A DNA stretch of 64,000 bases from a virus (Duplodnaviria; Caudoviricetes): positions 108,505 through 172,504 of IMG/VR virus record IMGVR_UViG_3300013121_000022, one strand, 5' to 3'. Positions within the stretch are counted from its first letter, which is position 1. Every line of letters begins with the position of its first letter. The notes below the pieces were generated by a model. It was not told the DNA's origin. It searched no databases and worked only from the letters and a program-made list of their open reading frames with translations. Positions 16,688-56,326 of this stretch are shown here, piece after piece. The translations under genes were made by a program, and so were the position numbers.

Positions 16688-17070
16688 GATCGGCGCAGAT
16701 CAAGTTGTCGAGCTCGAAAGAGTTAGGAACTTCCCGACGATACAGGAGCAATCCTGAAAACCCTCCACATGAAAACAGCAAGTGTGGACAGTTCGACTGA
16801 ACTGATGTCAACGGCAACAGAGAACATTCCGCTCGAAAGAGTAACGGGTGAAAAGGACGGTGATACCCGTCCGGCATGTCAAGGTAACTTGCTTGCATAG
16901 GCGACAGGACAGGGGATCGCAAGGTGGCGCAAGATAGGCTACGGTTTATCTTGTAGAACCGCAGTATAAACGGTACGACAGAATAACACTCAGTCGCACT
17001 AGGATATACCATCAACCCGATGAGAAAGATGACAACCTAAACAGAATCGGGGGTATGATCGGCGCAGATT
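16688..17070 (+). ncRNA. rnpB: RNase P RNA (divergent, phage-encoded)
   Basis: P2 GTTGTC/GACAAC, P3 GAAA hairpin, P4 AGGAACTTCCCGA with ACAGAATCGGGGGTA, P5 CGAT/ATCG-CAAG, GCAACAGAGAA and GGGTGAAAAG joiners. Confidence 0.88.
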
Positions 17071-17145
17071 GGTTCTTGACAAAAAAATATAACCGATCCA
17101 TAATAATCTCAACTTCCACTATCTCACAGAAAGAGGATACCGAAC

Positions 17146-17322
17146 ATGGAACTCAAAATTGTTTCTGCAAAAGCTGGTGATCAGTACGTGAATCTGGTGG
17201 GTCAAACATTTCCGGTGGTTCGTGAACTGGAAACAATCTACGTGATTGAAGTTGAGGGCAAAAGCGTCTATGTTCGTGAGGACGACTGCGAAGTAAAAAT
17301 CATTGAACCAGTTGCGGCCTAA
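17146..17322 (+). CDS. small hypothetical protein (58 aa, below ORF-track cutoff)
   Basis: GAGG RBS; MELKIV..EPVAA. Confidence 0.6.
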   Translation: MELKIVSAKAGDQYVNLVGQTFPVVRELETIYVIEVEGKSVYVREDDCEVKIIEPVAA

Positions 17323-17382
17323 ATAATTATTCTACTTGACAGGCTTTATCAAGTCAGGTAGAATAATTTGCGTGAGGGTCAT

Positions 17383-17616
17383 ATGAAATATACCGATAAG
17401 TTTGAAGTGGACACTAACGGTAAAATCATTGGTGCTGAAACGCATCCGAATGCGCCCGTAATTGTAAATTTTTATCGTGTTGTCAACGGCAAGAAGCGAT
17501 ACAATAAACTTGCGAAGCGGTTACATTTTTTTACCGAACAACACTTTCAGAGCAACACCGATTTCTTGAATCGAATGAGCGCACGTAAAGATCGGGTATA
17601 TTATCGGGCAAACTAA
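17383..17616 (+). CDS. hypothetical protein
   Basis: TTGACA/TAGAAT promoter and GAGG RBS. Confidence 0.6.
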   Translation: MKYTDKFEVDTNGKIIGAETHPNAPVIVNFYRVVNGKKRYNKLAKRLHFFTEQHFQSNTDFLNRMSARKDRVYYRAN

Positions 17617-17623
17617 ATAACAA

Positions 17624-17694
17624 GCGGGTATAGTATAACGGTATTATAAAAGCCTTCCAAGTTTAAGACGCGGGTTCGACTCCCGCTATCCGCT
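17624..17694 (+). tRNA. tRNA-Gly(TCC)
   Basis: loop CTTCCAA, U73. Confidence 0.88.
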
Positions 17695-17835
17695 CAGAGA
17701 ATAGCACGAGTGACTAACGTTGCGAAATGGTTGAATACAGAGTCCTGACGTTGATCTATACTGCTTAGGCACACATGGATCATGAGGTCAAAAAACTAAT
17801 CCTCAACACATCCGGCATTATGCTAATTTTGCCAT

Positions 17836-17908
17836 GCGGTTGTAATTCAGTTGGTAGAATATCTCTTTGCCAAAGAGAATGTCGTGGGTTCGAGTCCCAT
17901 CAGCCGCT
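17836..17908 (+). tRNA. tRNA-Gly(GCC)
   Basis: loop TTGCCAA. Confidence 0.92.
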
Positions 17909-17979
17909 CTTGTTATAAAGTCCTAAACTGAAATAGACCATAGTTCCGACAACATGTATCAACCTTACGCCACGATTAA

Positions 17980-18051
17980 GCCGATGTAGCTCAATGGTAG
18001 AGCAACTTCCTTGTAAGAAGAAGGTTAAGGGTTCAAGTCCCTTCATTGGCT
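17980..18051 (+). tRNA. tRNA-Thr(TGT)
   Basis: loop CTTGTAA. Confidence 0.9.
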
Positions 18052-18118
18052 CAGTGTCCCATCAACAATTTATAGCAGGAGTCTTATCCTACTATGGACA
18101 GGGAATATGGGACAATCT

Positions 18119-18191
18119 GCCGGATTAGCTCAGTTGGTAGAGTATCTTTTTCGTAAAAAGAGGGTCACGAGTTCGATTCTCGTATCCGGCT
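18119..18191 (+). tRNA. tRNA-Thr(CGT)
   Basis: loop TTCGTAA. Confidence 0.92.
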
Positions 18192-18227
18192 CAGGTTCGT
18201 TTCATTGTGTCTCATTTAGGAATGAGA

Positions 18228-19253: not shown

Positions 19254-20147
19254 ATGGGATACGCACACATCGAAAATCTTTACAAGCCACATGTAAAAGA
19301 ACTTCTCTTTATGTTTCGGGAAGTCTATGCACTCGAAAAGATACATGGATGCTCCGCCGAAATTAAGTTTACCGCCGAGATTGGAACTGGCAAAGTTGAT
19401 GTTAGTTTTGACGGTGGGCTATTGTCGCCAGAACAATTCTCAAACATTATCGACAAGTCTATTGTAGAAAAGTTCGTGGAACTGAACAAGCAATACAACA
19501 ACGAAAGCATGTCTGTGTTTGGTGAGCTCTACGGTGGATCGATCAACCATATGAGCAAGGTGTATGGAGAGGAAAAACGCTTTGTTGTTTTTGATGTCAA
19601 GGTTGGCGATGTTTTCTTGTCTGTGCCACAGGCCGAAGACACAGCGAATCGACTTGGACTGGAATTCGTATCTTACAAGCGCATTCCGGTAACGATTGAA
19701 GCCATTGATGCTGAACGGGACGCCGAATCGGTTCAGGCTATCCGCGTCGGAATGGGTTCTGGCAAATATCGCGAAGGTGTGGTTTTGCGTCCGTTGTTTG
19801 AAGCACGACTGAATAACGGCGAGCGAATTGTAGCCAAACACAAGCGTCCAGAACATTCTGAAACAAAGACTCCGCGAACTCTGAATGAGGATGAACTGAA
19901 AGTCCTGTCCGATGCCAATGAAGTTGCAGAGGAATGGGTTACGGAAACCAGACTCCAGCATGTCTTGGACAAGATTACCGGAACACGAGATATGAAGTTG
20001 ATGGGAACGGTAATAAAGGCCATGACTGAGGATGTGTACCGAGAGGCGCATGGCGAAATCGTGGAATCCAAAGCTATTCAAGGCGCAATCAGCAAGAAAA
20101 CGGTTGCGCTTTACAAGAACTACCTTGAAACCGACAGCGTTCAATAA
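19254..20147 (+). CDS. ATP-dependent RNA ligase (Rnl2-like)
   Basis: motif I EKIHG, GELYG, FDV, EGVVLR, terminal K motif. Confidence 0.85.
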   Translation: MGYAHIENLYKPHVKELLFMFREVYALEKIHGCSAEIKFTAEIGTGKVDVSFDGGLLSPEQFSNIIDKSIVEKFVELNKQYNNESMSVFGELYGGSINHMSKVYGEEKRFVVFDVKVGDVFLSVPQAEDTANRLGLEFVSYKRIPVTIEAIDAERDAESVQAIRVGMGSGKYREGVVLRPLFEARLNNGERIVAKHKRPEHSETKTPRTLNEDELKVLSDANEVAEEWVTETRLQHVLDKITGTRDMKLMGTVIKAMTEDVYREAHGEIVESKAIQGAISKKTVALYKNYLETDSVQ

Positions 20148-20384
20148 CAAAATTGAAGCACTGCTAGTCGATTTACATCGATGGGGAGTGCTTCAATGTA
20201 TTATCCGACAAGATCAAATGTTTTGCACTCCACCTGTAGCCGGACGTCCATCAATTGTTGATATGTTTGAAGTTGAATGGAGCGTTCATTCAGTCAAAGA
20301 CGTTCCAGAGATCGTCTTGTACGTGACGGACACTACAGCCTACACGCGATTGCACAAATGGAATCAGAAAGAAAGCTTACTGAC

Positions 20385-21110
20385 ATGGACAATCTAAAAG
20401 AGATTGGGCAAACATGGATTGTTGAATTTCCAAGAACAAAACATCTTCCATTTCGCCCTAACGCCACTCGTGATGACCTAATTGCTACCCAAGTTCAGGC
20501 AAGCATTATTTTTGATCCGGCAGTTGTCGTATCAACAACTGAAAAAGTAGACGGGGCACAATTGGGAGTTGGAATTGTTGATGGTAATCTTTGTATCCGC
20601 AACCGAAATCACGTGCTCAATAAAGGTTATCTCAGTCGCGGGGCGGCAGGCCGACAATTTGCGCCAACATGGACGTATTTTTACAAGCGAATTGAAGCAC
20701 TAAAGGCAATGGAAAAGTTCGCAGGTGAGCCTTTGGTAATTTACGGAGAGTGGTTGTATGCGGTTCATTCAATTGTTTATGACACTTTAACTGTTCCGTT
20801 TTTGAGTTATGATATTTATTTGCCGGAACAAAAGATATTTATTAAAGGTGCTCTGGCTAGATCGCTACTAGAAAACTTTGGATGGTCAGTTGTTGAACAA
20901 CTTGAAAACAAGGGATCGTATGAAGAATTGTCGAAGTTGTGTCACCAAAAATCGGCCTATGGATCGACTAAGCGAGAGGGTGTTTATCTGTCGGTCTGCG
21001 CCGATAAAAAATCAGTCACACATCGATTCAAAATGGTACGTTCAGATTTCATTACTGGTGAACACTGGTCTAAGCGATCTATTATCAAGCAACCTATGGT
21101 GAGGTTTTAA
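20385..21110 (+). CDS. RNA ligase family nucleotidyltransferase
   Basis: PRTKHLP, TEKVDG, YGEW, REGV, RFKMVR. Confidence 0.85.
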   Translation: MDNLKEIGQTWIVEFPRTKHLPFRPNATRDDLIATQVQASIIFDPAVVVSTTEKVDGAQLGVGIVDGNLCIRNRNHVLNKGYLSRGAAGRQFAPTWTYFYKRIEALKAMEKFAGEPLVIYGEWLYAVHSIVYDTLTVPFLSYDIYLPEQKIFIKGALARSLLENFGWSVVEQLENKGSYEELSKLCHQKSAYGSTKREGVYLSVCADKKSVTHRFKMVRSDFITGEHWSKRSIIKQPMVRF

Positions 21111-22180: not shown

Positions 22181-22355
22181 CGTGGGATTGAAAGTCACAT
22201 GGAATGACAACGGATTAACCCGATGGGATTATTTTGAACTTGTCATTCGCAACGGGCAGGAATTAGTTTTGTCGGGTTTTGGAAAAACCGTTCACATCAA
22301 GGTTGAGGACTTGAAATATATCGAACCATTTGGAAAGTTACCAGAAAACGGTTGA
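22170..22355 (+). CDS. hypothetical protein
   Basis: AAGGTG RBS. Confidence 0.5.
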   Translation: MEISVGLKVTWNDNGLTRWDYFELVIRNGQELVLSGFGKTVHIKVEDLKYIEPFGKLPENG

Positions 22356-22490
22356 TGCCATTTGTATACTCTGTGATGTAGAAATCCAGCATACCGCGTT
22401 CGCGGAGGCATAAGAATGGGTGCAACCTGTGGTCTTGTCTGAGTAGGCAAAGGTCATGAACTTTGTTTGAATGGCATCATCCGTTTTCTG
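22342..22490 (+). ncRNA. candidate structured RNA, about 150 nt
   Basis: about 21-bp closing stem CAGAAAACGG-T-TGATGCCATTT/GAATGGCATCA-T-CCGTTTTCTG. Confidence 0.55.
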
Positions 22491-22569
22491 ATAAATTCGG
22501 TGGTACGATAACGCAAGTAATCTTGAAATTGATCCTTGACAGGATAGCAAAAGCGACTATAATTTTTTT

Positions 22570-23570
22570 CTGTTGGCCTGAACTTTACAAAAATTACTGA
22601 GGGCGCTAATGGAGTTCAACTCTCCATCAGTAACATATCCAAATTGGAGTGGGGTAGTGCATACCCAAATCAAGGGAGGAAGCAAGCGAAAGCAAGCTGA
22701 AACCTGAGATTGAAACTCTAAGGCGGAGGGAACATCTAGTTCCCTTAGATAAAACCCGTAAGGGTAATAAAGGCGGATACCAATGGTCTGCCGGATGCAA
22801 ATCTCAACTAGACGAACTATCTTCGCTTGTGTTGGTGTAGGTGGTCGGCAAGAAATTGCAGGCTACTGAACAGCTAAGCCCACTGAAAAGGTGGTGAGTC
22901 CGAAAGACAAAACAATAAGATAGAGGGTAACAAGTTCGTTCGCAAGACGGGCGCTTACAAGACAATCGGCATCACTCCTAGCGGAACTTGCCAGAAAGTT
23001 AAGCGGTTACTGACAGCAAATCAGTGGCGGCAAAATGTGTGGTGTGGTAAAGGGATGCGTAAAAGTGTCTACAACCCGACAGGATACATCACGCACAATT
23101 GGAAAAACTCTGCCTGAAGCTCAGGCTTGGCCTCTTAAGCAAATGCAATCGCAAAAATAAAGTCCTGTAGGTGTACGAGATTTACAGATACCCCTTCATT
23201 ACCGTAACCAATCGGTGAATCAAGGCCACGAGCTTTGATATGTGCAACGAGTGAAGGATGTTCGGCGGCTTGCAACCGTTGGGCATCAGGCGCGGCGAGT
23301 GCATAGAAGATTTCGTAAACCTGAGTGGGTTGGGCTAAACCCACAAAAAGAAACTAAGCGACATCGTAAGCACAACGATACGCAAGGATAGCGGGGTAAA
23401 GTGTAGGATGATTGGGGTAACTCGATCTTGGAACAGAGCGGACACTGTGACGAACAGAACTGCTTGACTCTACACTAAAAAACGGAATGTGGCCTGAACC
23501 GTTTCTTGAAACGACTACCCTCTGGACTATATAGTCGAATGGACATATAATTCAGAGAGTGGTCATTTTT
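22570..23570 (+). ncRNA. large ornate ncRNA, about 1 kb (GOLLD-like candidate)
   Basis: consensus TTGACA/TATAAT promoter upstream, no + strand ORF, many GNRA hairpins, terminal hairpin plus T run. Confidence 0.65.
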
Positions 23571-23597
23571 GTTTAACCGAAAGATGGAAAATTTTAC

Positions 23598-24194
23598 ATG
23601 AAGATGAATGCTGTTATGGTCGGAGATGTACACGGCAAGTGGGATCAATTCAAGTCGATTGCTGAAAAGGCAACGATGCCTGTGTTTCAGGTCGGTGACT
23701 TTGGATTTGGACTACGGAATCGTAAGCCCAACATCAAAGGCGATTGGCGTTTCATTCGCGGCAATCATGACGATCCAAGTTTAGCTAAAAAGGACAGTCA
23801 TTATGCTGGCGACTTTGGCGTTTGGAACGGAGTGTTCTTTGTTTCGGGCGCAGCTTCAATTGATGTTGGTCAGCGTACTACTGGTGTTGACTGGTGGCCG
23901 GATGAACAATTGAATTACACGCAAATGCAAGAGGCATACAATCTGTATGTAAGATTTAAGCCAAAAATTGTTATCACTCATGATTGTCCAGATCATTTCA
24001 AGTCGCATTTTATGACCTATGTCATCAAGCGATCCTCGACCGGAGTTTTATTGAATGCACTATATGAATTTCATGAGCCAGAGTTGTGGGTTTTTGGTCA
24101 TCACCACAAAAGTCAGCAAACTCGATTCGGAAAAACAATGTTTGTTGGCCTTAGAGAACTTGAAACCCAAGAAATTGAATGGACGATTCCATAA
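23598..24194 (+). CDS. calcineurin-like metallophosphoesterase
   Basis: GDVHG, VGDFG, GNHD, THDCP, GHHH. Confidence 0.9.
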   Translation: MKMNAVMVGDVHGKWDQFKSIAEKATMPVFQVGDFGFGLRNRKPNIKGDWRFIRGNHDDPSLAKKDSHYAGDFGVWNGVFFVSGAASIDVGQRTTGVDWWPDEQLNYTQMQEAYNLYVRFKPKIVITHDCPDHFKSHFMTYVIKRSSTGVLLNALYEFHEPELWVFGHHHKSQQTRFGKTMFVGLRELETQEIEWTIP

Positions 24195-24214: not shown

Positions 24215-24856
24215 ATGACAACCTGTAAATGCTGTGGATCAATTATTACCAATGGAAACTCTCGTACATGGGATGAAATTCCGAGTTGCTTCAACTGGAG
24301 TCGTCGGGCGGTTGAAGTTGCTTTAGTTCAAAACTCCCCTATTGTGTTTTATGGCAATGTATGGGCATCGATCATAGCAGAGGCAACCAAGATTCTTGAT
24401 AAGGAACTGGCGGTTTATCATGTCAAACCTTGTCCTTGCGGCAACTTCCGAAGCGCAGTTGCTTCGTGTACATGTTCGGTTAGACAAATTCAGTCGTGGG
24501 AGCGTAAACGCGATTTTCAAAGAGCATTGAGTGTGTATCATTTATGGATTGAAATTCATGATGCTGATGGACGACTAGATATTCATCAAAACAGGACAGA
24601 AAAGATCGCTGATATTGTCAGTCGATCTAAAAGAGCACGAGATAAATTATCTAAGATCGATTCAAATCTCATTGAGGATTCGGGACAATCTCTATTACAG
24701 GCATGGGACAGACAATCTCATATGTCGTATCGTTTACCAGCAATCAAGCATGTTGCAACCAGTATTGCATCTCTCTCGGCTTTATACTCAAGCGTCAACC
24801 ATCTTTCGGCGGTACATATCGCTGAATCCATCCAATATCAGCGCAAAAATTGGTAA
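24215..24856 (+). CDS. degenerate ComM/YifB (Mg-chelatase-like) C-terminal domain protein
   Basis: PCPCG..CTCS..QI, VATSIASL, HIAESIQY; no Walker A seen. Confidence 0.6.
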   Translation: MTTCKCCGSIITNGNSRTWDEIPSCFNWSRRAVEVALVQNSPIVFYGNVWASIIAEATKILDKELAVYHVKPCPCGNFRSAVASCTCSVRQIQSWERKRDFQRALSVYHLWIEIHDADGRLDIHQNRTEKIADIVSRSKRARDKLSKIDSNLIEDSGQSLLQAWDRQSHMSYRLPAIKHVATSIASLSALYSSVNHLSAVHIAESIQYQRKNW

Positions 24857-26748: not shown

Positions 26749-26751
26749 CTA

Positions 26752-27410
26752 TGATGCAACGTAAAGATAGTGATTGCATCATTATTAATAATATCTGTGT
26801 CCTATCTGTCTGGTCTGGTTTGGTCAGAGAAAAACATCGGAACACTAGGCGAAGATTTTCGAGCAGATTTCATAAATTGGTTTATGCGCGATGGGCTTGT
26901 CAGTCCAATGACAATCGCGTTGAAGGGTGCGCCTCTGTAACCGCACTCCCATAACATGAGGCAAAGCTTGTAAGAGACAAGTGGAAGTAGGGTTTTCAAG
27001 TCTGCTATCTAATAACCACACTCCGTCACTAGGGAAGCGTGAGCCGAAACGATGTGGCGCAGAGGAAAAACTTGCAGACATGCACATTTCAAATTCTATA
27101 TTCTGTTGTTCAGGGCGAGTGATTGACTGATCATCAACATTCGTTATAATCATCGCGTAAAAACTGTTGCCATAACAGTAGCGCACTAGACTATACACTT
27201 TCGCTGGTCTAGGTTGAACAATACCAATGACATAGAGCATCACAAGTGGGAGATACGAGCGAATGCTTTGAAGCAGTAATGCTTCTTAACCCACGTGAGT
27301 CGTCCCGAATCTTACAGCTAGTGGTCGGTGGCGTGAAGGAAAAATCCTTTCACAGAAATGTGTCGCTTAATAATTTAGTTGGTATGTCTTATCGGCTTTG
27401 CAACCGATTG
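26752..27410 (+). ncRNA. large structured ncRNA, about 650 nt (ROOL-size candidate)
   Basis: no credible ORF, dense hairpins, bounded by two tRNA-Ala genes. Confidence 0.55.
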
Positions 27411-27444
27411 ATTTGAACAACAGAACATAGAATTTGAAGTTTTT

Positions 27445-27517: not shown

Positions 27518-27532
27518 CAGAAAGAAAACAAT

Positions 27533-27853: not shown

Positions 27854-27854
27854 T

Positions 27855-27926: not shown

Positions 27927-27937
27927 CAAAAAAAAGA

Positions 27938-28192: not shown

Positions 28193-28193
28193 T

Positions 28194-44856: not shown

Positions 44857-46854
44857 ATGACATACTATTCTATTTCGGGCATCCTCAAGATGTGGCGCGA
44901 TCTCGTTGAAGTGTATTCGCCGGACGACAATCTCAACAACTTTTTTAGTGAGTTGCGGGATTACGACAATCAAATCAGCCTTGCCTTAGAATTAGACGAT
45001 ACCAATCTTACGGCAATATTGATTCTGGACAATGTACTTAAGCAGTATCTTGAAAATAAAAGCATCAATCTAAGCGAAATCGCCGGATCGAGAAGTAATG
45101 TTCTGAAATTCTTGGTTGAATATCAGAACTTAAATGACGCTTTACACGCGCCAGAGATTGAATCTTTGGTCAAGGATTTTCAAGATGGTATTGCAACATC
45201 ACTAAATAACGTTCAATGTTTGACACCCTCTGTTGCTGAACTAATCAGCAATCGTTTCATGTTGGCCGAAATACGCTTGGCCGCACTGAAATCAAACCGC
45301 GATCTCAAGGTATTCAAGTTTTCATCCGGCAACAACGACGCCACTGACTTTGTGTTTTTCAAAGAAGTGCGCCAATACTTTGATGTCAATATTTTGTTGC
45401 AACTCGCCGCAAATCCGCATTTTCCAAATAGCATTAGTCTTCACTTGATTCGAGATGTTGTCAATGAAGAATTCTCGTATTTTGTCTTTTTGATAAAGAA
45501 CGGTGACAATGTTTATTTGGTTGCCGACAACCCCGATTTACCTTCACCTGACTACAAGAACAGAGGCCGATCTCGATCTATTTCGCGCAAGTTTAGTGCT
45601 CGAATCGACGCTCATTATTTTCCGTATAGTTTTATGAACGTTGAGTTCAACAAAAAAACAGCTCTGTACGAAATCAAAAATTTTTACTCAACCGATCTCG
45701 TGCCTGCCGATCAATCGAATATCGTTGGTCGCTTAAATGAAATGGATGCCGAAAGCATTGTGTGGGTGTATATGTTGTTTTGGTTATTTAAGCAAAAGTT
45801 CTTTGCCGATGAACCGATTCAACTTGAGCAATCCTATACAGGTGCGATGATTAGGACTGGAATTGAGTCTCCGAAAGTTTCAAACGCCATTATCAAGGCG
45901 TATCCAGCATTAAATGTTCAATCACTAACAACATCCTTGTTGACTAATTCAAATCCAGAGATTGTCAAACAGTGGAAATATGAACCTACGCATCAAAATC
46001 AATGGATGGAAGATCGCTATGCTGATAAAATCAAAAACACAGATCGGATATTGAATTACGTTGAAGTTCCGGCCTTGCCAGACGACTATAACGTTAAGAC
46101 CGGAAACATAATTCAACATCACAAAAAAGATACTGACAGTTTTTTTGGTCAAGATAAACTAGAGGTTGCAATTCCGCTCAGAGGCGTATCTGTTACCGAT
46201 ATGGGATCGGCGCAAACTTTGGAGCAAAACAGAATATTTTTTGCCCGTCTTTCTCAAGCTCGATCAATTCAGGTTTTGGCACAACAAGAGTTCAACGCAA
46301 CTCGTAAATCTGTTTTTGCATGGTATTTTTCACAAGTTGTACAAAACATCTCAGAACTTAAACGCGCCATTGCGACTGAAACGTTTATGTGTAATGTCTC
46401 AGTGCATAATTCTTATTCTCCAGATCGTCCTAGCATGGCGGATTCGTTTGACAGTCACATGGAATTGAGAAACATTTTTGTTCTTTTGCCGATTGAAAAA
46501 AGGCGGGGATGGTACGATGACGAGCAGGTGGTGTTGTTAGGTGGCGGAGATAGATTTAGACAATGCTACTTCACTAATGGTCAGGCGTCGTATGTCGCTA
46601 AATTCTATGTACGCGACAGCGATTCAATCGCCAGAGTGTGTAATTTATCGGTATCTGATTTACCTGATGTATTACAACACGTTCGGGGTGTTGATCGCTA
46701 TATTGGAAATTCAATACTGTCTCGTATCGATCCATTGGATAATTTGAAAAATCCCTGGAACAAACTTGACTATAGCATTGAAATTGCATTATCCAAGCGA
46801 GCTCTGAATGCCATTCGCAAAGAATACGGGATCAAGAAAGAAAATCAGTCATGA
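44857..46854 (+). CDS. large hypothetical protein (leaderless)
   Basis: 665 aa; TTGACA/TATAAT-N6-ATG. Confidence 0.75.
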   Translation: MTYYSISGILKMWRDLVEVYSPDDNLNNFFSELRDYDNQISLALELDDTNLTAILILDNVLKQYLENKSINLSEIAGSRSNVLKFLVEYQNLNDALHAPEIESLVKDFQDGIATSLNNVQCLTPSVAELISNRFMLAEIRLAALKSNRDLKVFKFSSGNNDATDFVFFKEVRQYFDVNILLQLAANPHFPNSISLHLIRDVVNEEFSYFVFLIKNGDNVYLVADNPDLPSPDYKNRGRSRSISRKFSARIDAHYFPYSFMNVEFNKKTALYEIKNFYSTDLVPADQSNIVGRLNEMDAESIVWVYMLFWLFKQKFFADEPIQLEQSYTGAMIRTGIESPKVSNAIIKAYPALNVQSLTTSLLTNSNPEIVKQWKYEPTHQNQWMEDRYADKIKNTDRILNYVEVPALPDDYNVKTGNIIQHHKKDTDSFFGQDKLEVAIPLRGVSVTDMGSAQTLEQNRIFFARLSQARSIQVLAQQEFNATRKSVFAWYFSQVVQNISELKRAIATETFMCNVSVHNSYSPDRPSMADSFDSHMELRNIFVLLPIEKRRGWYDDEQVVLLGGGDRFRQCYFTNGQASYVAKFYVRDSDSIARVCNLSVSDLPDVLQHVRGVDRYIGNSILSRIDPLDNLKNPWNKLDYSIEIALSKRALNAIRKEYGIKKENQS

Positions 46855-47357
46855 AAATTTTAACTCCACAGGCTCAACAAGATCGCGAAAATTTTATCAA
46901 CGCCGATCTGTCGGCCTGCACATGCAATACAGGACATCCACCATGTTCTTTTTGTACTCACCCTGGAAACCCAATCAATCAGGACTTGAAATATAGTCCT
47001 GATTGCTGGATGGATGTTCATACTACCGACTCTATTCGAGCAGAACTAAACACCGAGACACGATTTTACTTGTTGGCTATAAGAAGCATTTGTCAAAAGG
47101 GATTTGACGCAATCGCAAAGCCATACTTGGACAAGAACGGATTTCATTTTGTGGTTGATGAGGAACATTGGTGTATATACGACTCAAATATGCGCTTTAT
47201 GATTATCGATTCGTTTGACGGACGACATGACGGGCGCGATATTGAACATATTGAACTAAGCAACATTGTCCAGTTTTTACAAATCAGCATCGATGGCAAA
47301 TACACCATCGGTATGATGTGTGAAAACTATAGTTCCAAAGCCAAATCGAGGTCTTGA
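46851..47357 (+). CDS. hypothetical protein with CxC..HPPCxxC motif
   Basis: CTCNTGHPPCSFCTHPG. Confidence 0.6.
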   Translation: MKILTPQAQQDRENFINADLSACTCNTGHPPCSFCTHPGNPINQDLKYSPDCWMDVHTTDSIRAELNTETRFYLLAIRSICQKGFDAIAKPYLDKNGFHFVVDEEHWCIYDSNMRFMIIDSFDGRHDGRDIEHIELSNIVQFLQISIDGKYTIGMMCENYSSKAKSRS

Positions 47358-47388
47358 CTAATTTGAATTATGAGATATAATTTATACA

Positions 47389-47530
47389 CTAATTGCTTGC
47401 GTAGAATAGCAGGGAGTAGGCAACCTTAATTTGTTCAGTAAATAAAATCTGACCTGAACTGGTTGTTGACTAGGAAGCTCAACCCCTGGGTTGGGTGGAG
47501 TCGCAAATGAAATACCTGCCTAGCAGTTAG
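47389..47530 (+). ncRNA. candidate structured RNA, about 140 nt
   Basis: TTGACT/TATAAT promoter; CTAATTGCT/AGCAGTTAG and GCAGG/CCTGC helices; abuts tRNA-Ser. Confidence 0.55.
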
Positions 47531-47533
47531 TAT

Positions 47534-47630
47534 GGATAGGCGGCAATGGTTGGCGCAAGCAGACCGCTTGGAAAGCGGTTAGTCGTGATAGTGATATTGC
47601 GGCTTATGGGTTCGATCCCCATCCTATCCT
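47534..47630 (+). tRNA. tRNA-Ser(GGA)
   Basis: loop TTGGAAA, long variable arm, atypical D arm. Confidence 0.82.
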
Positions 47631-47635
47631 CAATA

Positions 47636-48160
47636 ATGTTCAACGGAGTTTACGTGCAAAAGAAATTTTATCAACTCGGTGATTTTGGTCAAGCGACAAA
47701 CGAAAAGCTACCAACACCACGATTGGAATTGAGATGTGGATTAGACGTGGATTTGGCAAGTTGGCAATGGATATATCGATTGGTATTTAATGACGTTAAC
47801 GGAAATGAATCTGCTATCGATATTGCTACTGAACACACGTACGAGAATCCGGTTGCCTCTGATGGTTTGTATTTGCCCGAAGGACTTGATAACATGATTT
47901 CCAGCGACTCACTGGAATTGGGTATTCGGGCATTTGGAGTTTATGGCGCAAGAATTTTTCAAATTGGATTTGCGCCCGTAACAAACGCGTATCAGATTTT
48001 AGAAAAGGCTGAGTGTCTATCCTGTATAAGCGCGGGACGTGATCAGTCCTTAATGGTTGGCGTAACCGATTATGGATTGCAGGTGTGGTGTAAGAACTGC
48101 GATAAAAATGTTTTGCATATAGATTTTCAAGGTCGGCGTCATCCTGTTGTGTTTGGATAA
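47636..48160 (+). CDS. hypothetical protein with CxxC pairs
   Basis: CLSC, GLQVWCKNC. Confidence 0.6.
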   Translation: MFNGVYVQKKFYQLGDFGQATNEKLPTPRLELRCGLDVDLASWQWIYRLVFNDVNGNESAIDIATEHTYENPVASDGLYLPEGLDNMISSDSLELGIRAFGVYGARIFQIGFAPVTNAYQILEKAECLSCISAGRDQSLMVGVTDYGLQVWCKNCDKNVLHIDFQGRRHPVVFG

Positions 48161-48162
48161 TT

Positions 48163-48249
48163 GGAGTTGCCCATAGGCGCGGTTAGCTATCTCGAACATA
48201 GTGAAGTCGATTAATTATCGGCGTGAGAGTTCGACTCTCTCCAACTCCG
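48163..48249 (+). tRNA. tRNA-Ser(CGA), reduced D arm
   Basis: acceptor GGAGTTG/CAACTCC-G, loop CTCGAAC, long variable arm. Confidence 0.75.
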
Positions 48250-48254
48250 CACTT

Positions 48255-48425
48255 ATGAATACTGTAATAGAGCAATTCAAAATGAATCTTCCTGTATGTG
48301 AATGTTGTTTTTCGTATCTTGTCACTCTGCATTATTTGTACGACTACAAAAATAGATACTGCGAGTTTTATCGTTGCTGGTCATGCGATCATGAATGGTG
48401 GAAGCATAAAAGACGTGAAACTTAA
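48255..48425 (+). CDS. small zinc-ribbon protein
   Basis: CECC..CWSCDHEW. Confidence 0.5.
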   Translation: MNTVIEQFKMNLPVCECCFSYLVTLHYLYDYKNRYCEFYRCWSCDHEWWKHKRRET

Positions 48426-49314
48426 ATTCTTGAACTTGGGAATTGCACTTGGAATTTTTTGCGCCATTGCTTTACAGTGGCAAGGTGGGTTTGACTGCCT
48501 GTGGTTCTTTTGTCGTCCGTATCATTCTGGTACGACAATTCCGGCGTTTGGACACATATTGCTATTCCCTCTTACATTTCTATCTTTTCCGTACTCATGG
48601 ATGATGGTGGTTTTTATAACCCTATCATCCATTTTTTTTGTTCATACTGTGCTTCGTCTGTCGGATTGGTATTTAACGGTTGCATTGCTATCTCCAATAA
48701 CATGGATGGAGCTATGGTTAGGCCAAATTGAATTTTTATATATGCTTGGCGTAGCCTTGATTGTATTGGATGAAGAAAAAAGAAAATCGGATTGGTGGAC
48801 GGGAGTTGCGATCTTGCTGTTATCAGTCAAGCCTCAAATGTCGTGGTTGCTACTCGTATTCGTGGTCTGGTGGATTTATAAAGATGGTCGAAACGTGGGT
48901 GTTGTGTTTATTCCGTTGGTGCTGGCCGGACTGCTTTCGTTTTGTTTTTATGGCTGGTGGATACCAGACTGGTTGAGGGCGATTCCAAATGTGTATGGTT
49001 GGTCGGCAATATACCCTTATGGATTTTTAGCATTGCCGCTTGCATGGTTGCCTACCAATAGACGAAATAAAATTTTTCTGACGCTACTGGTATCATTGGT
49101 GGTTAATCCGCACGTCCTGATGTATCACTCGGTTTTGATCGCTCTATTTATTCCGTTTGGGCACGTGGTATCTCTGATGCTTTTTGTGTTCAAGGCATTG
49201 GACTTGAGCATTATTATTCCCTTAGCTTGTTTGTTGGTGTTTGGAATAATCTGCCTAAAAACGCCTTATCTCTTGAATATTGCTCATAAGTTAGGTATTG
49301 ACATTTATAAATAG
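48415..49314 (+). CDS. GT-C membrane glycosyltransferase (GT87/DUF2029-like)
   Basis: multi-TM; LGQIE and SVKPQ motifs. Confidence 0.7.
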   Translation: MKLKFLNLGIALGIFCAIALQWQGGFDCLWFFCRPYHSGTTIPAFGHILLFPLTFLSFPYSWMMVVFITLSSIFFVHTVLRLSDWYLTVALLSPITWMELWLGQIEFLYMLGVALIVLDEEKRKSDWWTGVAILLLSVKPQMSWLLLVFVVWWIYKDGRNVGVVFIPLVLAGLLSFCFYGWWIPDWLRAIPNVYGWSAIYPYGFLALPLAWLPTNRRNKIFLTLLVSLVVNPHVLMYHSVLIALFIPFGHVVSLMLFVFKALDLSIIIPLACLLVFGIICLKTPYLLNIAHKLGIDIYK

Positions 49315-49367
49315 TTGTCATATAATTCTCTCAACCTAAATACTATTCTTGAAGAAAGAGGATTTCA

Positions 49368-49715
49368 ATGTACGACACACTTTCACTAACCGAAAAGTTG
49401 GAGTTGTGGGGCAAACTTAAAGTTGAACTCGCGGCTCTTGAAAACGAGATCGAACCGCAAATTTTGTCGCTTGGGAATTCTCAAATTGTCGGCAAGGTTT
49501 CGGCAAAAATTTCAGAACCCCGCGATTCGTTTGACTACCAAAAAGCAGCTGCCAAGATCAAAGCCCCGTTTGCGGTAATTAAGCAACACACTACACCAGT
49601 TACAGACTGGAAAGCGGTATGTGAGGCAGTGGGTCTACCAGACAGCGTAAAAGAGATGTTCCGCATCCCAAGCAAGAACGGCAAGCGCAAGGTCAACTTC
49701 TCTCTGCTGGACTAA
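49368..49715 (+). CDS. hypothetical protein
   Basis: promoter and GAGG RBS. Confidence 0.65.
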   Translation: MYDTLSLTEKLELWGKLKVELAALENEIEPQILSLGNSQIVGKVSAKISEPRDSFDYQKAAAKIKAPFAVIKQHTTPVTDWKAVCEAVGLPDSVKEMFRIPSKNGKRKVNFSLLD

Positions 49716-49721
49716 TCAAAC

Positions 49722-49750
49722 AAAAAGACTTCCAATTGGAAGTCTTTTTT
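49722..49750. terminator. bidirectional terminator
   Basis: AAAAAGACTTCC-AATT-GGAAGTCTTTTTT. Confidence 0.85.
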
Positions 49751-49752
49751 AT

Positions 49753-50091
49753 TTAACGTCCGATCAATTCAATCGGTGGTCGCTCTCTGCCCATGACGTT
49801 ATGCCGAACGTATCTAACGTCTTTTACAACTCCATCACCGATGGGTTGAAAATCACCGAACTCCAATGGCTTGATTGTTGGCGTGGGCTTGATCAAATAC
49901 AGTCGAATGGTATCGGACACGATAACAGACACATTGTAGACAAGGGGCAAGACAAAGGGAAGGACAAACACCCATATCAATGAGACAAAGACATCTAAGG
50001 CGTTGTCCGTTGTCACGCTATATGCCGCAACACCCAACATTGCAATAAAGACACATTCCAGTGTGCATCTCCAAACAGTATTTAGTTTCAT
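49753..50091 (-). CDS. membrane protein
   Basis: two TM segments, coupled to upstream gene. Confidence 0.6.
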   Translation of the reverse strand: MKLNTVWRCTLECVFIAMLGVAAYSVTTDNALDVFVSLIWVFVLPFVLPLVYNVSVIVSDTIRLYLIKPTPTIKPLEFGDFQPIGDGVVKDVRYVRHNVMGRERPPIELIGR

Positions 50092-51435: not shown

Positions 51436-51503
51436 TCCAAATATATCGCAAGGCTGAATTTGGGATATTTGACATTTTATTTGTTTTGATCTATAATGCC
51501 TGC

Positions 51504-51728
51504 ATGTCAAAGAAAATCAAGCATCAAAAAATTTCGCTATGGAAGATCATTCGCCAAATTAATCCAGACAGCACGAGTGGTATTCTAAGACGAGATTTTG
51601 AAGACAACTGTGTTTGGGTAAATGGCAGTCCGGTCAATAGTGAAACATACCCTATTCAAAAGGGTGATGTCGTTCGATATTATCCTAATGGCGCGGGAAC
51701 TAAACCCGTATACGAGAGGAAAGTATGA
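51504..51728 (+). CDS. S4-like RNA-binding domain protein (leaderless)
   Basis: RRDFEDNCVWVNG..IQKGDVV. Confidence 0.55.
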   Translation: MSKKIKHQKISLWKIIRQINPDSTSGILRRDFEDNCVWVNGSPVNSETYPIQKGDVVRYYPNGAGTKPVYERKV

Positions 51729-53930: not shown

Positions 53931-54193
53931 ATTACGAAAACTTGGAACGCACTCAAACCCTCATCCACATTACTGCTGGTCATGGCAAAGCAGTGCACTA
54001 TGCCTACAAAACAGAGTATCGCGATCTGCAAACAAAAGAAGTTGTTGAATCGCGGATTTATTCGTTGTGCGGATCGGAAGGTGCTGGTGGTGGTTCGCGA
54101 TTGGTTCAGACCGGAATCAGTGGAACGACTGATCGTCCCGTAACTTGCAAACGATGCTTGAAGTCTTATGGAGAACCTAAACAATGTCAATGA
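53927..54193 (+). CDS. hypothetical protein
   Basis: VTCKRC motif, coupled. Confidence 0.55.
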   Translation: MNYENLERTQTLIHITAGHGKAVHYAYKTEYRDLQTKEVVESRIYSLCGSEGAGGGSRLVQTGISGTTDRPVTCKRCLKSYGEPKQCQ

Positions 54194-54666
54194 AAGATAC
54201 GGTATACAAAATCCTAAAAGCACACGGTTTAGTTGAGGAATTTGAGCAGGCCAAAGGCGGAGAGTTTCATTTGCGACTGGTCAACGATCCGTATATGCCT
54301 CTGGTCATCGAAAAAATTTCCGACAACGAGGTTTCGGTTGCTCACTACGGAGAATTAAACGGCGATGCCATGCGTAATCCAGAGATGGTATTCAAAATTG
54401 TGCCCGATACATCAATCAGGCTGACAAAAAAAGGTATGGTCAAAAAAGACATCGTTGTTTGGAAACCCACTTACTTCCGCAACGACTACATGGGAGCTGA
54501 ATCATTTGTCTATAACGTTCGGGAAGGCGTCGAATATTACGGTGCAACACTTGCTATGTCGCTAAAATCGTTTCAGGCTATGTGGTCAAAAAATTTAATT
54601 GATCAGGGCTTTGCCAAGAAAGATTGTATTGCCATTTCAAATACGCACAACCTGAAAGAGAAATAA
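54184..54666 (+). CDS. DUF1249/DUF6908-like protein
   Basis: YMPLVIE..VAHYGELNGDAMRNPEMVF..WSKNLIDQGF. Confidence 0.75.
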   Translation: MSMKDTVYKILKAHGLVEEFEQAKGGEFHLRLVNDPYMPLVIEKISDNEVSVAHYGELNGDAMRNPEMVFKIVPDTSIRLTKKGMVKKDIVVWKPTYFRNDYMGAESFVYNVREGVEYYGATLAMSLKSFQAMWSKNLIDQGFAKKDCIAISNTHNLKEK

Positions 54667-54820
54667 TGCTATACATGGTGGTTGCAGGAAAACGAAGAAT
54701 CGAAATTTCAACTAACTGATCAGGGATCGCTATGTTGTACACCTATACCTGTGATGATAGATTTGATTCTTGACAAGCAAGAGTAATTGTGTATAATCAG
54801 CCTTAGTTCTTTAACAATTT

Positions 54821-55133
54821 GGGAGCGACAGGATTCGACGGATACAGATAGCTGACGGATCGATCACAAAATAACTGACAATACTTCTAAAGAAGTTGCA
54901 CAGTTTGAAGCAATGTTCGCACAGTTCGCCTCACAGGGAGCTGTCATCGCCGCCTAAAGCGGTTCGCAGTGACGTTTGTGTATTCGTATAAATACACTGG
55001 TGGCCTTTCATCCCCGCACGTTCGGCAACTCGTAAAGTTGTCCCTTACTTCGCTAGGTTAAACGAAGAATGATCGTAACATCTGAAAGCACATGATCGGT
55101 AGACGGACGTGGGTTCAATTCCCACCGCTTCCA
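54821..55133 (+). ncRNA. ssrA: tmRNA
   Basis: GGGAGCGACAGGATTCGAC start, G3-U acceptor, T arm GGGTTCAATTCCC, tag ORF 54877-54957 after ATAACT ending IAA-stop; own promoter. Confidence 0.95.
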
Positions 55134-55373
55134 CTAGACTACATCAAGCAAAGAACACTTGATTAGCCGTACAAGCAGAGTAGGTTTATTGGAGATAAAC
55201 AATGAATACCAATAATAACAACAACTGCAATCAGTTCTAACGGCAAGCGATGCTTGCCCGACTAGATAGGCGTCGGGCAAGCGTCGTTTGCTAAACGAGG
55301 CGTTGAAAATCTCCTACGCCTACAAAGCCGAAAGGCCGGAGCGTTAGACAGGAGTAACTTAAAAACTGAATAT

Positions 55374-55446
55374 TGCCGCGTAGCATAATGGTAGTGCGCC
55401 TGCCTTTGAAGCAGGGTCAGCAGAGGTTCGATTCCTCTGGCGGCAA
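55374..55446 (+). tRNA. tRNA-Gln(TTG)
   Basis: loop CTTTGAA. Confidence 0.88.
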
Positions 55447-55482
55447 CATGCGTTTTTTGGTGTCGCATCGAACAACCATCTT

Positions 55483-55553
55483 TGTCTTGTCGTATATTGG
55501 TATTATGGGAAGCTCTGAACTTCCAGAACGAGGTTCGATTCCTTGCGAGACAG
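55483..55553 (+). tRNA. tRNA-Gln(CTG)
   Basis: loop CTCTGAA. Confidence 0.88.
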
Positions 55554-55569
55554 CTAGAAAGAGAAAAAC

Positions 55570-55947
55570 ATGATAATTACCAGCGAACAAATTGATGCCT
55601 TGATTAGAATGTTTGGCGAACTTGGATCAACTGCCTATACCATTGCCTTAACAAAAGTGTATGCCGATGGTATTGTTAATTTGGTCTGGTCGGTTGGCGT
55701 GTTTGGCCTTTCGATTGTCGCTTGGACTGTAGCGGCTTATACGGGTCGTTATCGGGAAAAACATGACGACGATCTATCGAGAGACGGTGTGGGAGTTCTG
55801 TGGGCAGTCCAAGTTATCGCATGGGTGATAATGACAGTCAGTATTTTTGTGTCATTATCCGCTCTGTCAAACGGCGTTAGTCGAATGATTGCGCCGGAAT
55901 GGTGGGCGATTCAGGAACTGGTCGACCTGAGCAAAACACTACGATGA
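55570..55947 (+). CDS. membrane protein
   Basis: two TM segments. Confidence 0.65.
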   Translation: MIITSEQIDALIRMFGELGSTAYTIALTKVYADGIVNLVWSVGVFGLSIVAWTVAAYTGRYREKHDDDLSRDGVGVLWAVQVIAWVIMTVSIFVSLSALSNGVSRMIAPEWWAIQELVDLSKTLR

Positions 55948-56252
55948 ACATTCAATGCAAACACTGCGGGAGTATCAATCGAGTTGTCAAAGTCAACAAT
56001 GATTTTGACAGACCTTATATCAGTTGTGACGTGTGTCGATCTGTTTTAGTTGTAAACACAACTCGATTGAAATTGAATGCGTTTTTCTGGAACACCCTGC
56101 TATATTTGATTGTGGTCGATCTATTTGTTGGCATAGCCTGTTTAGCATTTCAAGGTATATTGCATCAATGGATTGAACCGGATGCTACTGTGTTGTATGT
56201 GCTGTCGGCGGTAACAGCAATCAATATTGTGGCAATAAAGATTACAAACTGA
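55944..56252 (+). CDS. zinc-ribbon membrane protein
   Basis: CKHC..CDVC plus two TM. Confidence 0.55.
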   Translation: MNIQCKHCGSINRVVKVNNDFDRPYISCDVCRSVLVVNTTRLKLNAFFWNTLLYLIVVDLFVGIACLAFQGILHQWIEPDATVLYVLSAVTAINIVAIKITN

Positions 56253-56253
56253 T

Positions 56254-56326
56254 GCCGATGTAGCTTAGTTGGTAGAGCGTATCCCTCATAAGGATAAGGT
56301 CAAGGGTTCAAGTCCCTTCATCGGCA
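56254..56326 (+). tRNA. tRNA-Met(CAT) elongator (or Ile2)
   Basis: loop CTCATAA, paired 1-72. Confidence 0.88.

Follow-up and report, generated by a model that had tools for sequence, protein, structure and literature searches.

Helix-clamped non-coding modules between the tRNA genes of an orphan phage and their possible release by tRNA processing

Introduction

What occupies the spaces between the tRNA genes of a large phage, if it is not protein-coding sequence? The question is raised by the window analysed here, the final 64 kb of a complete phage genome of 172.5 kb for which no relatives were found. A sequence-only reading had proposed that many ORF-free spacers at 16688-56326 are closed by helices next to tRNAs and that tRNA processing sets them free, which would give the phage a cassette system of non-coding RNAs with its own processing and repair enzymes. 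The folding statistics suggest that about ten spacers of the island form separate non-coding modules, each 60-350 nt long and lying on the gene strand. As a tentative reading of these data, to which we assign a probability of roughly 0.4, the modules are co-transcribed, helix-clamped RNAs that are freed by tRNA processing.

The RNA genes of the window

The window carries 46 tRNA genes and an additional unannotated tRNA-Ser(GGA), which makes 46-47 in total, and 36 tRNA genes fall within 16688-56326. The encoded CCA is missing from 44 of the 46 tRNA genes, and the phage possesses a gene for a CCA-adding enzyme. Further RNA genes and remnants are the following:

16692-17070, + strand: divergent RNase P class A-like RNA gene (Rfam RF00010, full model 1-367, E 1e-15)
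29898-29968, + strand: decayed tRNA-like remnant with a 7-bp acceptor-like helix and a T-arm at 29944-29960 (T-loop motif search)
47354-47629, + strand: unannotated class II tRNA-Ser(GGA)-like gene at 47534-47629 behind a promoter and a 145-nt leader (tRNA-Ser(gga) by ARAGORN -ps90)
54821-55134, + strand: tmRNA (ARAGORN; Rfam RF00023 with 56 bits at a gathering score of 47)

The RNase P RNA and the tmRNA that had been read from the letters are thus both present, the former as a divergent gene whose RF00010 score of 58.9 bits lies under the gathering score of 100 and which retains the P4 and J-region motifs; its folding z of -5.2 serves as a comparison value for the spacer modules. The tRNA-Ser(GGA)-like gene also matches the tRNA-Sec model with 22 bits (E 0.045), and the remnant at 29898-29968 receives no tRNA call by ARAGORN or Rfam. 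As tRNAs start -2 to +7 nt from ORF stop codons in ten cases and tRNA-to-tRNA gaps measure 1-3 nt in seven, the operons are tightly punctuated.

Long helices close spacers at tRNA ends

The comparison with shuffled sequences, which had been suggested together with the sequence-only reading, reveals a clear folding excess: 9 of the 29 spacers in the tRNA island have z <= -3 (-3 to -8.8), and none of 36 coding control windows does (mean z -0.6, sd 0.9). Six long-range inverted repeats (score >= 15, arms 40-450 nt apart) exist in the whole 172.5 kb, as compared to 0.2 per shuffle, and five of them are clustered within 13 kb, at 22.3-35.3 kb of the window. Clamps are enriched at tRNA ends, with 12 of 51 tRNA-adjacent spacer ends being clamped versus 9.2% in shuffles (p 0.002). 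What had been called many clamped spacers holds for about one third. The helices enclose ORF-free modules of 60-350 nt, with 0-6 nt separating their start or end from a tRNA, and folding together with the neighbouring tRNAs gives them pair probabilities of 0.86-1.0; their arm lengths group at 17-33 bp with 84-96% complementarity, and no ORF with ATG and Shine-Dalgarno sequence was found inside the modules. These are the modules and associated hairpins:

18055-18114, + strand: 60-nt hairpin module that fills the tRNA-Thr(tgt)/tRNA-Thr(cgt) spacer, with an 8-bp closing helix; spacer z -4.0
22335-22497, + strand: clamped module I2, an inverted repeat with 25-28-bp arms and 107 nt between
27088-27438, + strand: clamped module I3, 25-bp arms of 96% complementarity with 301 nt between; spacer z -5.1
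30089-30309, + strand: clamped module I1, 28-33-bp arms with 155-165 nt between; pair probability 0.98
30988-31067, + strand: two hairpins with a T-loop-like motif at 31028 (T-loop motif search), followed by I7
31068-31240, + strand: clamped module I7, an inverted repeat with 22-bp arms; spacer z -4.9 including the two hairpins at 30988-31067
32372-32430, + strand: perfect 16-bp hairpin that ends 3 nt before tRNA-Asn; pair probability 0.97, spacer z -3.6
33003-33299, + strand: two modules, 33003-33174 and about 33180-33299, that fill the spacer between tRNA-Asn and tRNA-Phe; spacer z -3.3
35129-35321, + strand: clamped module I12, 17-20-bp arms with 153 nt between; pair probability 0.99
35322-35455, + strand: clamped module I6, 25-bp arms, 4 of whose pairs are G-U; pair probability 0.99
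55232-55370, + strand: structured module that separates the tmRNA from tRNA-Gln and contains an inner hairpin of 20 bp at 55243-55291; spacer z -7.8

The most compact arrangement is the spacer between tRNA-Asp and tRNA-Arg, which is filled by I12 and I6 with linkers of 5, 0 and 4 nt: the I12 helix (35129-35148/35302-35321) begins 5 nt downstream of tRNA-Asp, I6 (35322-35346/35431-35455) abuts I12 and ends 4 nt before tRNA-Arg, and the spacer 35124-35459 has a z of -8.8 on the + strand and -7.6 on the - strand. As neither a promoter of at least 10/12 nor a + strand terminator was found in this interval, cuts at the ends of the flanking tRNAs would free the two units. The helices noted earlier at 35129 and 35324 are both confirmed here, and so is the one at 33003, where a 12-bp clamp (33003-33014/33163-33174; pair probability 0.96) starts 2 nt after tRNA-Asn and is followed by a T-run; the second clamp of that spacer is present in the MFE fold only. 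The module at 18055-18114 lies 2 nt after the upstream and 4 nt before the downstream tRNA, with a closing-helix pair probability of 0.94 when folded with both, and about 3 nt separate the module at 55232-55370 from tRNA-Gln at 55374. I3 ends 6 nt upstream of tRNA-Ala(cgc) at 27445, I7 ends 18 nt upstream of the start codon of the CDS at 31259, and I2 follows a small CDS and precedes the perfect promoter 22536-22563. The spacer of I1 has a z of -6.1 on the + strand versus -2.5 on the - strand. A strong promoter (27123-27150) lies immediately inside the 5' arm of I3, and a perfect one (30286-30313) within the 3' arm of I1, 11 nt before tRNA-Ile; transcripts from these two promoters would miss one arm.

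The arrangement also occurs elsewhere, as three unrelated phage contigs carry clamps of a similar kind next to tRNAs:

Contig L006: clamp 6 nt before tRNA-Pro, z -5.3
Contig L011: clamp 5 nt before tRNA-Asp
Contig L012: clamp 1 nt after tRNA-Ile

Spacers with other content

The other three helices cited earlier fold no better than expected by chance. The site at 37073 (spacer 37034-37202, z -2.2) marks where a leader begins behind the promoter 37037-37064, and the site at 47389 (spacer 47358-47545, z -0.9) belongs to the leader behind the promoter 47354-47381 (11/12); at 37296, the spacer 37290-37390 has a z of -0.15. About half of the other supposedly ORF-free spacers contain plausible small ORFs or are unstructured. 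A good small ORF lies inside one spacer, at 35913-36149, and 37825-37848 is a plain terminator. Two further features are the following:

37037-37202, + strand: promoter (37037-37064, 11/12 with TG extension) and leader of about 130 nt of tRNA-Leu(caa), in which a local hairpin ends 4 nt before the tRNA
22570-23574, + strand: candidate large RNA of about 1 kb without ORFs, behind the perfect promoter 22536-22563 and ending in a hairpin (23513-23564) and a T-run

The candidate large RNA has a folding z of -5.1 on the + strand versus -2.2 on the - strand. GOLLD and ROOL covariance models gave no match at E <= 1 over 16000-57000, nor at E <= 10 over 28340-37950.

Processing and repair enzymes

19254-20147 and 20277-21110, + strand: two RNA ligase genes (Pfam RNA_ligase, E 7e-14 and 2e-16)
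23598-24194, + strand: calcineurin-like metallophosphoesterase (Pfam Metallophos, E 5e-8)
51486-51728, + strand: ORF of 80 aa with a sub-threshold S4 domain (Pfam S4, 18.7 bits versus a cut-off of 22.8)

Both ligases that had been recognized earlier hold, and the one at 19254-20147 is Rnl2-like, matching the T4 Rnl2 structure 2hvq (E 6e-6). The announced phosphoesterases come down to a single gene, and the S4-like protein to a weak match below the Pfam cut-off. No RNase III, RNase Z-like enzyme or RNase P protein is encoded in the phage genome, and the phage's own processing gear consists of the RNase P-like RNA and the CCA-adding enzyme, nothing more. The ligases resemble a set of enzymes for tRNA repair, and the known role of Rnl2-like ligases and phosphoesterase in phage tRNA repair fits at least as well as a maturation of non-coding RNA cassettes.

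RNAs, processing stems or DNA elements?

The folding excess resides mostly in the long closing helices and not in the module interiors, which without the closing helix have z values of -0.05 to -2.2 (one at -3.1) and thus barely exceed coding sequence, so that a sequence-specific folded RNA is not established by folding. This fits well with the helices being cis-acting processing or insulating stems and not genes, with host RNase III cutting the polycistronic transcripts between tRNAs and mRNAs and the enclosed sequence being dispensable and degraded; the stems may also prevent spacers from misfolding with neighbouring tRNAs. The arms of 17-33 bp have lengths typical of RNase III substrates, cuts at the end of I7 before its start codon or at the ends of I3, I6 and I16, 3-6 nt before tRNAs, would set useful 5' ends, and no sequence is common to the arms of different modules, as expected if pairing alone matters. 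Such stems are nevertheless a somewhat less probable explanation than released RNAs, as a local hairpin would be enough for cleavage and the 84-301 nt enclosed in a compact genome suggest that the interior is retained for a reason. An RNase III gene is missing from the phage, and the 31 tRNA spacers of phage Cece show no such structure, which means that tRNA arrays can do without clamps.

A role of the inverted repeats as DNA, be it as substrates of recombination or inversion, regulator sites, promoter-occluding cruciforms or footprints of tRNA-cassette assembly, would be in line with the strongly negative minus-strand z of several modules and with the promoters in I1 and I3, which make both resemble invertible promoter segments. 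It is nonetheless the least probable of the explanations, since neither a serine or tyrosine recombinase nor a reverse transcriptase was found in the genome, the arms share no core or repeat family, and the module ends coincide with tRNA boundaries, an RNA-level landmark. Where the arms depart from Watson-Crick pairing, the gene strand has G-U in 10 positions and A-C in 3, a weak bias, and in most cases the + strand also gives the better z and folding energy. It is also rather improbable that there is nothing special about the spacers, i.e. that leaders, terminators, decayed tRNAs and unannotated small ORFs are mixed with a few long helices from functionless recent duplications. About two thirds of the spacers do fold no better than coding sequence, and the small ORF, the terminator, the tRNA-Ser and the tRNA remnants at 29898-29968 and near 31028 are all of that kind, but this leaves the six long-range helices, the clamps at tRNA ends and their recurrence in unrelated contigs unaccounted for. 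From the sequence-only reading there remains an RNA-dense island with a subset of same-strand, helix-closed, ORF-free units edge to edge with tRNAs.

Relation to known phage RNAs

T4 encodes RNA C and RNA D in its tRNA cluster, and both are matured together with the tRNAs. Northern blots of infected cells have confirmed these small non-tRNA RNAs (species 1 and 2) of unknown function (PMC9697503), and T4 tRNAs likewise lack CCA and lie less than 5 nt apart (PMC11143913). The modules resemble them as small non-tRNA units in a cluster of CCA-less, closely packed tRNAs, but have no sequence or Rfam similarity to them, are about ten and mutually distinct, possess far longer closing helices (17-33 bp) and are predicted from sequence. 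GOLLD and ROOL, large ornate RNAs of phages and prophages that typically lie beside tRNA islands and have no known function (PMC12286853), correspond in setting and size class to the 1-kb unit 22570-23574, whereas the clamped modules are far smaller and not ornate inside. Like the RNase III stems of rRNA operons and T7 early mRNA, the modules have long near-perfect duplexes made from segment-flanking sequences at junctions of polycistronic transcripts, but the predicted stems enclose short ORF-free segments adjoining tRNAs. Hairpin-closed are also the C4 antisense RNA of P1/P7, M3 RNA and pre-4.5S RNA, which are matured by RNase P (PMC11143913); the modules differ in lacking a 3' CCA-like tail, and none of them is significantly antisense to a gene of the phage itself (longest match 15 nt, within chance). 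In bacterial and phage Y RNAs (YrlA), the 5' and 3' ends form a long stem, and they are found in phages with tRNA arrays (PMC4201824), such as Cece, but the Ro-binding motif GNCGAAN0-1G is not common to the module stems, the YrlA model has no match outside a tRNA, and a search of the phage genome detected no TROVE protein. Homologues of the modules were not found.

A possible route to stable RNAs

If the modules are RNAs released by tRNA processing, they would share short sigma-70-driven operons with tRNAs and small ORFs, everything edge to edge, and an 8-33-bp helix would close each module by pairing its first bases with its last. RNase P, i.e. the host enzyme, perhaps with the phage RNase P-like RNA, would cleave at the 5' end of the tRNA that follows a module, and host 3'-end enzymes would cut behind the discriminator base of the CCA-less tRNA that precedes it. 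Both activities are established mechanisms with T4 RNA C and RNA D as a precedent (PMC9697503, PMC11143913), and RNase P is known to process hairpin-type and phage non-tRNA substrates (PMC11143913). The near-perfect stems of 20-33 bp would be long enough for host RNase III, by which the interior could be trimmed or released. With both ends buried in the helix, a freed module would be protected from exonucleases and could accumulate as a stable RNA like T4 RNA C and RNA D, which may then have a function in trans.

Long-range helices in the ORF-free spacers

The phage genome contains six long-range inverted repeats (score of at least 15, arms 40-450 nt apart) versus 0.2 per shuffle, and five of the six lie in the window at 22.3-35.3 kb. 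Several ORF-free spacer segments, here termed modules, have their ends paired by such a closing helix, or clamp.

Arms of the closing helices, listed at looser settings than those used for the count
I1, arms 30089-30121 / 30277-30309, 33 bp (28-33)
I2, arms 22335-22362 / 22470-22497, 28 bp (25-28)
I3, arms 27088-27112 / 27414-27438, 25 bp
I6, arms 35322-35346 / 35431-35455, 25 bp
I7, arms 31068-31089 / 31219-31240, 22 bp
I12, arms 35129-35148 / 35302-35321, 20 bp (17-20)
I16, arms 32372-32387 / 32415-32430, 16 bp

The arms of I1, I2, I3, I6, I7 and I12 are 84-96% complementary, and with the flanking tRNAs included in the fold the arms pair with probabilities of 0.86-1.0. Pairing from end to end of whole spacers is not general; the modules clamp themselves.

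In the sequence-only reading, the island was filled with many structured RNAs. When 29 ORF-poor spacers were folded and each was compared with its dinucleotide shuffles, nine had a folding z-score of -3 or lower, and the other 20 were inside the range of coding controls (36 windows of the same genome, mean -0.61, sd 0.88, none below -3), so that the claim holds for a minority of the spacers. Two positive controls were folded as well, of which the island's RNase P-like RNA scored -5.2 and its tmRNA just -1.4.

Spacers with z of -3 or lower
35124-35459, z -8.8
55135-55373, z -7.8
29856-30324, z -6.1
26750-27444, z -5.1
30985-31258, z -4.9
18053-18118, z -4.0
32232-32433, z -3.6
33001-33302, z -3.3
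37825-37930, z -3.1, a plain terminator

This folding signal derives from the long-range inverted repeats. Without the closing helix one interior has a z-score of -3.1 and the others lie between -0.05 and -2.2, which is unremarkable, so the data speak for clamps and not for elaborately folded interiors. Self-blast found no sequence shared between modules beyond each element's own arms, and the longest antisense match of a module to the phage's own genes is 15 nt, within chance. Also the freedom of the gaps from ORFs had been overstated, as several hold ORFs with good codon usage (e.g. 35913-36149), but within the modules themselves no Shine-Dalgarno sequence with an ATG behind it was found.

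A further ORF-free stretch is organised as a unit of its own, as it is preceded by a perfect promoter and followed by a hairpin with a T-run:
22570-23574, + strand, ORF-free unit of about 1 kb behind TTGACA-16-TATAAT

Its z-score is -5.1 on the + strand versus -2.2 on the - strand, and as it matches neither GOLLD nor ROOL, the large RNAs known from phages, it is a candidate for a new large phage RNA.

Position of the modules between tRNA genes

All modules lie between tRNAs or ORFs of the + strand, and the claim that helices start or end close to tRNAs proved sound as a statistical statement: 12 of 51 tRNA-adjacent spacer ends are clamped (a helix of at least 7 bp that starts at most 6 nt from the tRNA and has its partner at least 30 nt away) versus 9.2% in shuffles (p 0.002). 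Three of the six individual sites named for it stood up as well. At 35129, I12 begins 5 nt after tRNA-Asp; at 35324, I6 directly adjoins I12 and stops 4 nt short of tRNA-Arg; and at 33003 the clamp begins 2 nt after tRNA-Asn. The other three did not: spacer 37034-37202, with the site 37073, has a z of -2.2, spacer 47358-47545, with the site 47389, one of -0.9, and both sites lie directly downstream of strong promoters (37037-37064 and 47354-47381, respectively), while spacer 37290-37390, with the site 37296, is in the control range at -0.15. Further close placements are those of I3, which ends 6 nt before tRNA-Ala, of I16, which ends 3 nt before tRNA-Asn, and of a hairpin (18055-18114) that occupies the gap between two tRNA-Thr genes.

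Tight packing is seen throughout. In seven cases one tRNA follows another after 1-3 nt, and in ten cases the stop of a small ORF is found -2 to +7 nt from the next tRNA (stops at 7518, 17624, 26676, 27855, 33683, 35866, 39257, 39652, 48159 and 56254), with two further ORFs overlapping a tRNA by 22-23 nt. In a genome this compact, the helix ends thus behave like the borders of genes. RNase P cleavage at these tRNA 5' ends would leave mRNAs with almost no 3' UTR, in which they would resemble the products of mitochondrial tRNA punctuation.

The island appears, by its sequence, to be a series of short operons of the host-sigma-70 type. Between tRNA-Asp and tRNA-Arg, neither a promoter of at least 10/12 matches nor a + strand terminator was found. 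A strong promoter is located just inside the 5' arm of I3, and a perfect promoter makes up the 3' arm of I1, 11 nt ahead of tRNA-Ile; both arms of these modules can thus occur together only in read-through transcripts, which complicates a view that considers only RNA. Seven perfect 12/12 promoters (TTGACA-N16/17-TATAAT) were counted, at 22536, 26242, 30286, 44822, 49298, 51469 and 54770, together with eleven 11/12 matches, all of them on the + strand.

At non-Watson-Crick positions within the arms, G-U on the + strand occurs ten times versus three times A-C, and z-scores as well as folding energies are mostly better on the + strand, with a strong difference for 29856-30324 and likewise for the unit at 22570-23574. 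This bias points to an RNA of the gene strand, for some modules weakly.

RNA genes and RNA enzymes of the island

The tRNA-rich character of the island is well founded, with 46 tRNAs and a tmRNA called by ARAGORN, of which 40 tRNAs and the tmRNA pass the Rfam gathering score. The proposed RNase P RNA matches the full class A model at 16692-17070 (E 1e-15) and keeps the conserved core motifs, but its 58.9 bits are below the gathering score of 100, and it is better termed RNase P-like. No RNase P RNA was found in nine other large phage records. A locus on a 533-kb IMG/VR record (L192, G010:C1:464339-464576) has a weak full-model match of only 238 nt and 53 bits.

Three tRNA-like sequences add to the annotated genes:
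47534-47629, unannotated class II tRNA-Ser(GGA)-like gene with 7-bp acceptor, T-arm GGTTCGATCCC, long variable arm and anticodon loop TTGGAAA
29898-29968, tRNA remnant with an acceptor-like 7-bp helix and a good T-arm (ATGAG-TTCGAGT-CTCAT)
31011-31067, tRNA remnant with a T-loop-like GGTTCAATTCC within an 11-bp stem

Neither remnant is called a tRNA by ARAGORN or Rfam. Because the tRNA-Ser(GGA)-like gene occupies 47534-47629, the 5' part of ORF 47546-48160 is spurious, and its coding sequence more likely starts with GTG at 47654, behind GGAG.

Encoded CCA is missing from 44 of the 46 tRNA genes, most have a T at position -1, and the phage has its own CCA-adding enzyme. Both RNA ligases were confirmed by Pfam, the first (19254-20147) resembling T4 Rnl2, and Pfam also finds a metallophosphoesterase and RecA. 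Of the S4-like protein there remains an 80-aa ORF whose S4 match is sub-threshold. Genes for RNase III, an RNase Z-like enzyme, RNase P protein, reverse transcriptase, and serine or tyrosine recombinases were searched in the phage and not found. The simplest view of the ligases and the phosphoesterase is that they form a tRNA-repair set like that of T4; a role of these enzymes in maturing the cassettes is speculation. The 213-aa ORF 24215-24856 was considered as a kinase; nothing in PDB matches it, and its P-loop signal is weak.

An orphan phage and tRNA islands elsewhere

The genome, that of an uncultured phage, is a 172,504-bp IMG/VR record with direct terminal repeats (the first 141 nt equal the last 141 nt) and a CheckV completeness of 100%; the window forms its final 64 kb. 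Beyond the window it encodes the large terminase, the portal and the CCA-adding enzyme (genome 22292-23989). Judged by sequence searches, the phage is an orphan. Its large terminase has a single relative, with 58% identity, on a 12-kb contig without the island; RecA reaches at best 57-59% among viral and metagenome contigs; and for a 165-aa island protein no relatives were found. Only tRNAs were matched when 26750-34194 was compared with 50,697 phage records by sensitive blastn and 30000-50000 with GenBank phages by megablast, 34195-38000 being covered by the less sensitive search alone, and none of the modules matched the 3 Mb of fetched loci (blastn and nhmmer).

Clamps at tRNA ends recur in large phages unrelated to this one, as seen in 20-kb loci that hold their tRNA islands. 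A long-range helix ends 6 nt before tRNA-Pro in L006 (z -5.3), one ends 5 nt before tRNA-Asp in L011, and one starts 1 nt after tRNA-Ile in L012, with a chance of about 1.7% per such placement as computed for L006 and L011. Spacers between tRNAs have a z of -3 or lower in 6/13 cases in Tunturiibacter phage Tunturi_5 (all six at -3.3 or lower) and 6/12 in L011, versus 0/31 in Microbacterium phage Cece and 0/5 in L008. tRNA arrays can thus do without structured spacers, common as these are in some phages. Cece carries the same set of island genes (RNA ligase, RtcB, Ro-like protein). One highly structured L011 spacer (16177-16390; 316-kb phage contig, z -6.9) resembles a tRNA whose anticodon arm is followed by some 130 nt of inserted sequence; it has an intact acceptor, D arm and T arm and was overlooked by ARAGORN.

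A 293-aa protein of the island (36152-37033) is carried by this contig only and finds at most 35% identity in 5.8 billion proteins. Distant relatives with 25-44% identity are encoded on 23 matching viral contigs, seven of which have at least five tRNA genes within the fetched 13-21-kb locus (L002, L003, L004, L006, L008, L009, L017), and also in L011 and L012 tRNAs lie beside the relative. Among the invariant residues of the alignment are RQGEWFF and His/Asp positions. AlphaFold gives a confident model (pLDDT 80), with no Foldseek match at E <= 0.001, a best VIA-align Z of 4.1, and no match to PDB profiles at E <= 0.001.

Comparison with known systems

The closest precedent are RNA C and RNA D of T4, non-tRNA RNAs of a phage tRNA cluster (PMC9697503), which like the modules are encoded among tRNA genes of the same strand; no homology to rnaC or rnaD was found (blastn 26750-34194, megablast 30000-50000), nor does any module match an Rfam family. 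T4 tRNA dimers are CCA-less and tightly spaced, and RNase P also cuts hairpins and phage non-tRNA substrates (PMC11143913). GOLLD and ROOL occur near phage tRNA islands (PMC12286853) and share this location with the modules; their covariance models gave no match at E <= 1 over 16000-57000 and at E <= 10 over 28340-37950. Y RNAs of the YrlA type were dismissed, as the Ro-binding motif occurs, anywhere in the region, in just 3/9 regions, a Pfam search of the whole genome gave no TROVE match at E <= 0.01, and the sole YrlA match lies within tRNA-Lys at 19.5 bits versus a gathering score of 69. Of tRNA-like genes the modules hold only the remnants (29898-29968, 31028), with no tRNA-clan match at E <= 10. 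A MITE or transposon family was rejected, since self-blast found no terminal repeats common to several copies, and a retron reading was rejected as well. By sequence, the modules would differ from the known tRNA-cluster RNAs in their long clamps and their number.

What the modules may be

The reading preferred here, tentatively and at a probability of about 0.4, is that the modules are released as helix-clamped RNAs. It draws on thermodynamic and positional evidence from a single sequence. The modules would be transcribed together with the tRNAs and cut free on both sides, by RNase P where the downstream tRNA begins and by 3'-end nucleases where the upstream tRNA, which lacks CCA, ends, and the clamp would protect their ends. 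The main rival, which is rather doubtful, keeps only the stems, as processing elements of the RNase III type or as insulators. It would account for the unstructured interiors, and I1, I2, I3, I6, I7 and I12 do resemble RNase III processing stems in that flanking sequences form a duplex of about 20 bp or more. That nothing in the spacers is functional is unlikely in view of the helix statistics and the recurrence in other phages.

A role of the inverted repeats at the DNA level is less probable still, as there is no resolvase/invertase or tyrosine recombinase and the arms have no common core. An inverton was rejected on the same grounds, yet I3 encloses a promoter and the 3' arm of I1 carries one. 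Lowest of all we place the idea that clamped cassettes make up a general but so far overlooked type of gene in phage tRNA islands, excised, perhaps ligase-sealed or circularised, exonuclease-proof and acting in trans. RNase III and RNase P would then excise the cassette at the long stem or at neighbouring tRNA ends, the phage's Rnl2-type ligase, an enzyme that seals nicks in duplex RNA, might seal or circularise it, and it could serve e.g. as a decoy for host anticodon nucleases or RNA-sensing defences.

If the stems serve only in processing, they would still show how operons of this type yield separate tRNAs along with mRNAs that lack a leader or trailer. The clamps at tRNA ends in three unrelated phage contigs hint that phage tRNA operons may follow a common design rule. 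If the released, helix-clamped RNAs do accumulate, the phage would make about ten small RNAs that no catalogue lists, and one of 1 kb, alongside its tmRNA, its RNase P-like RNA and an almost full set of tRNAs, and the old and still unexplained observation of RNA C and RNA D in T4 would be widened to a larger system.
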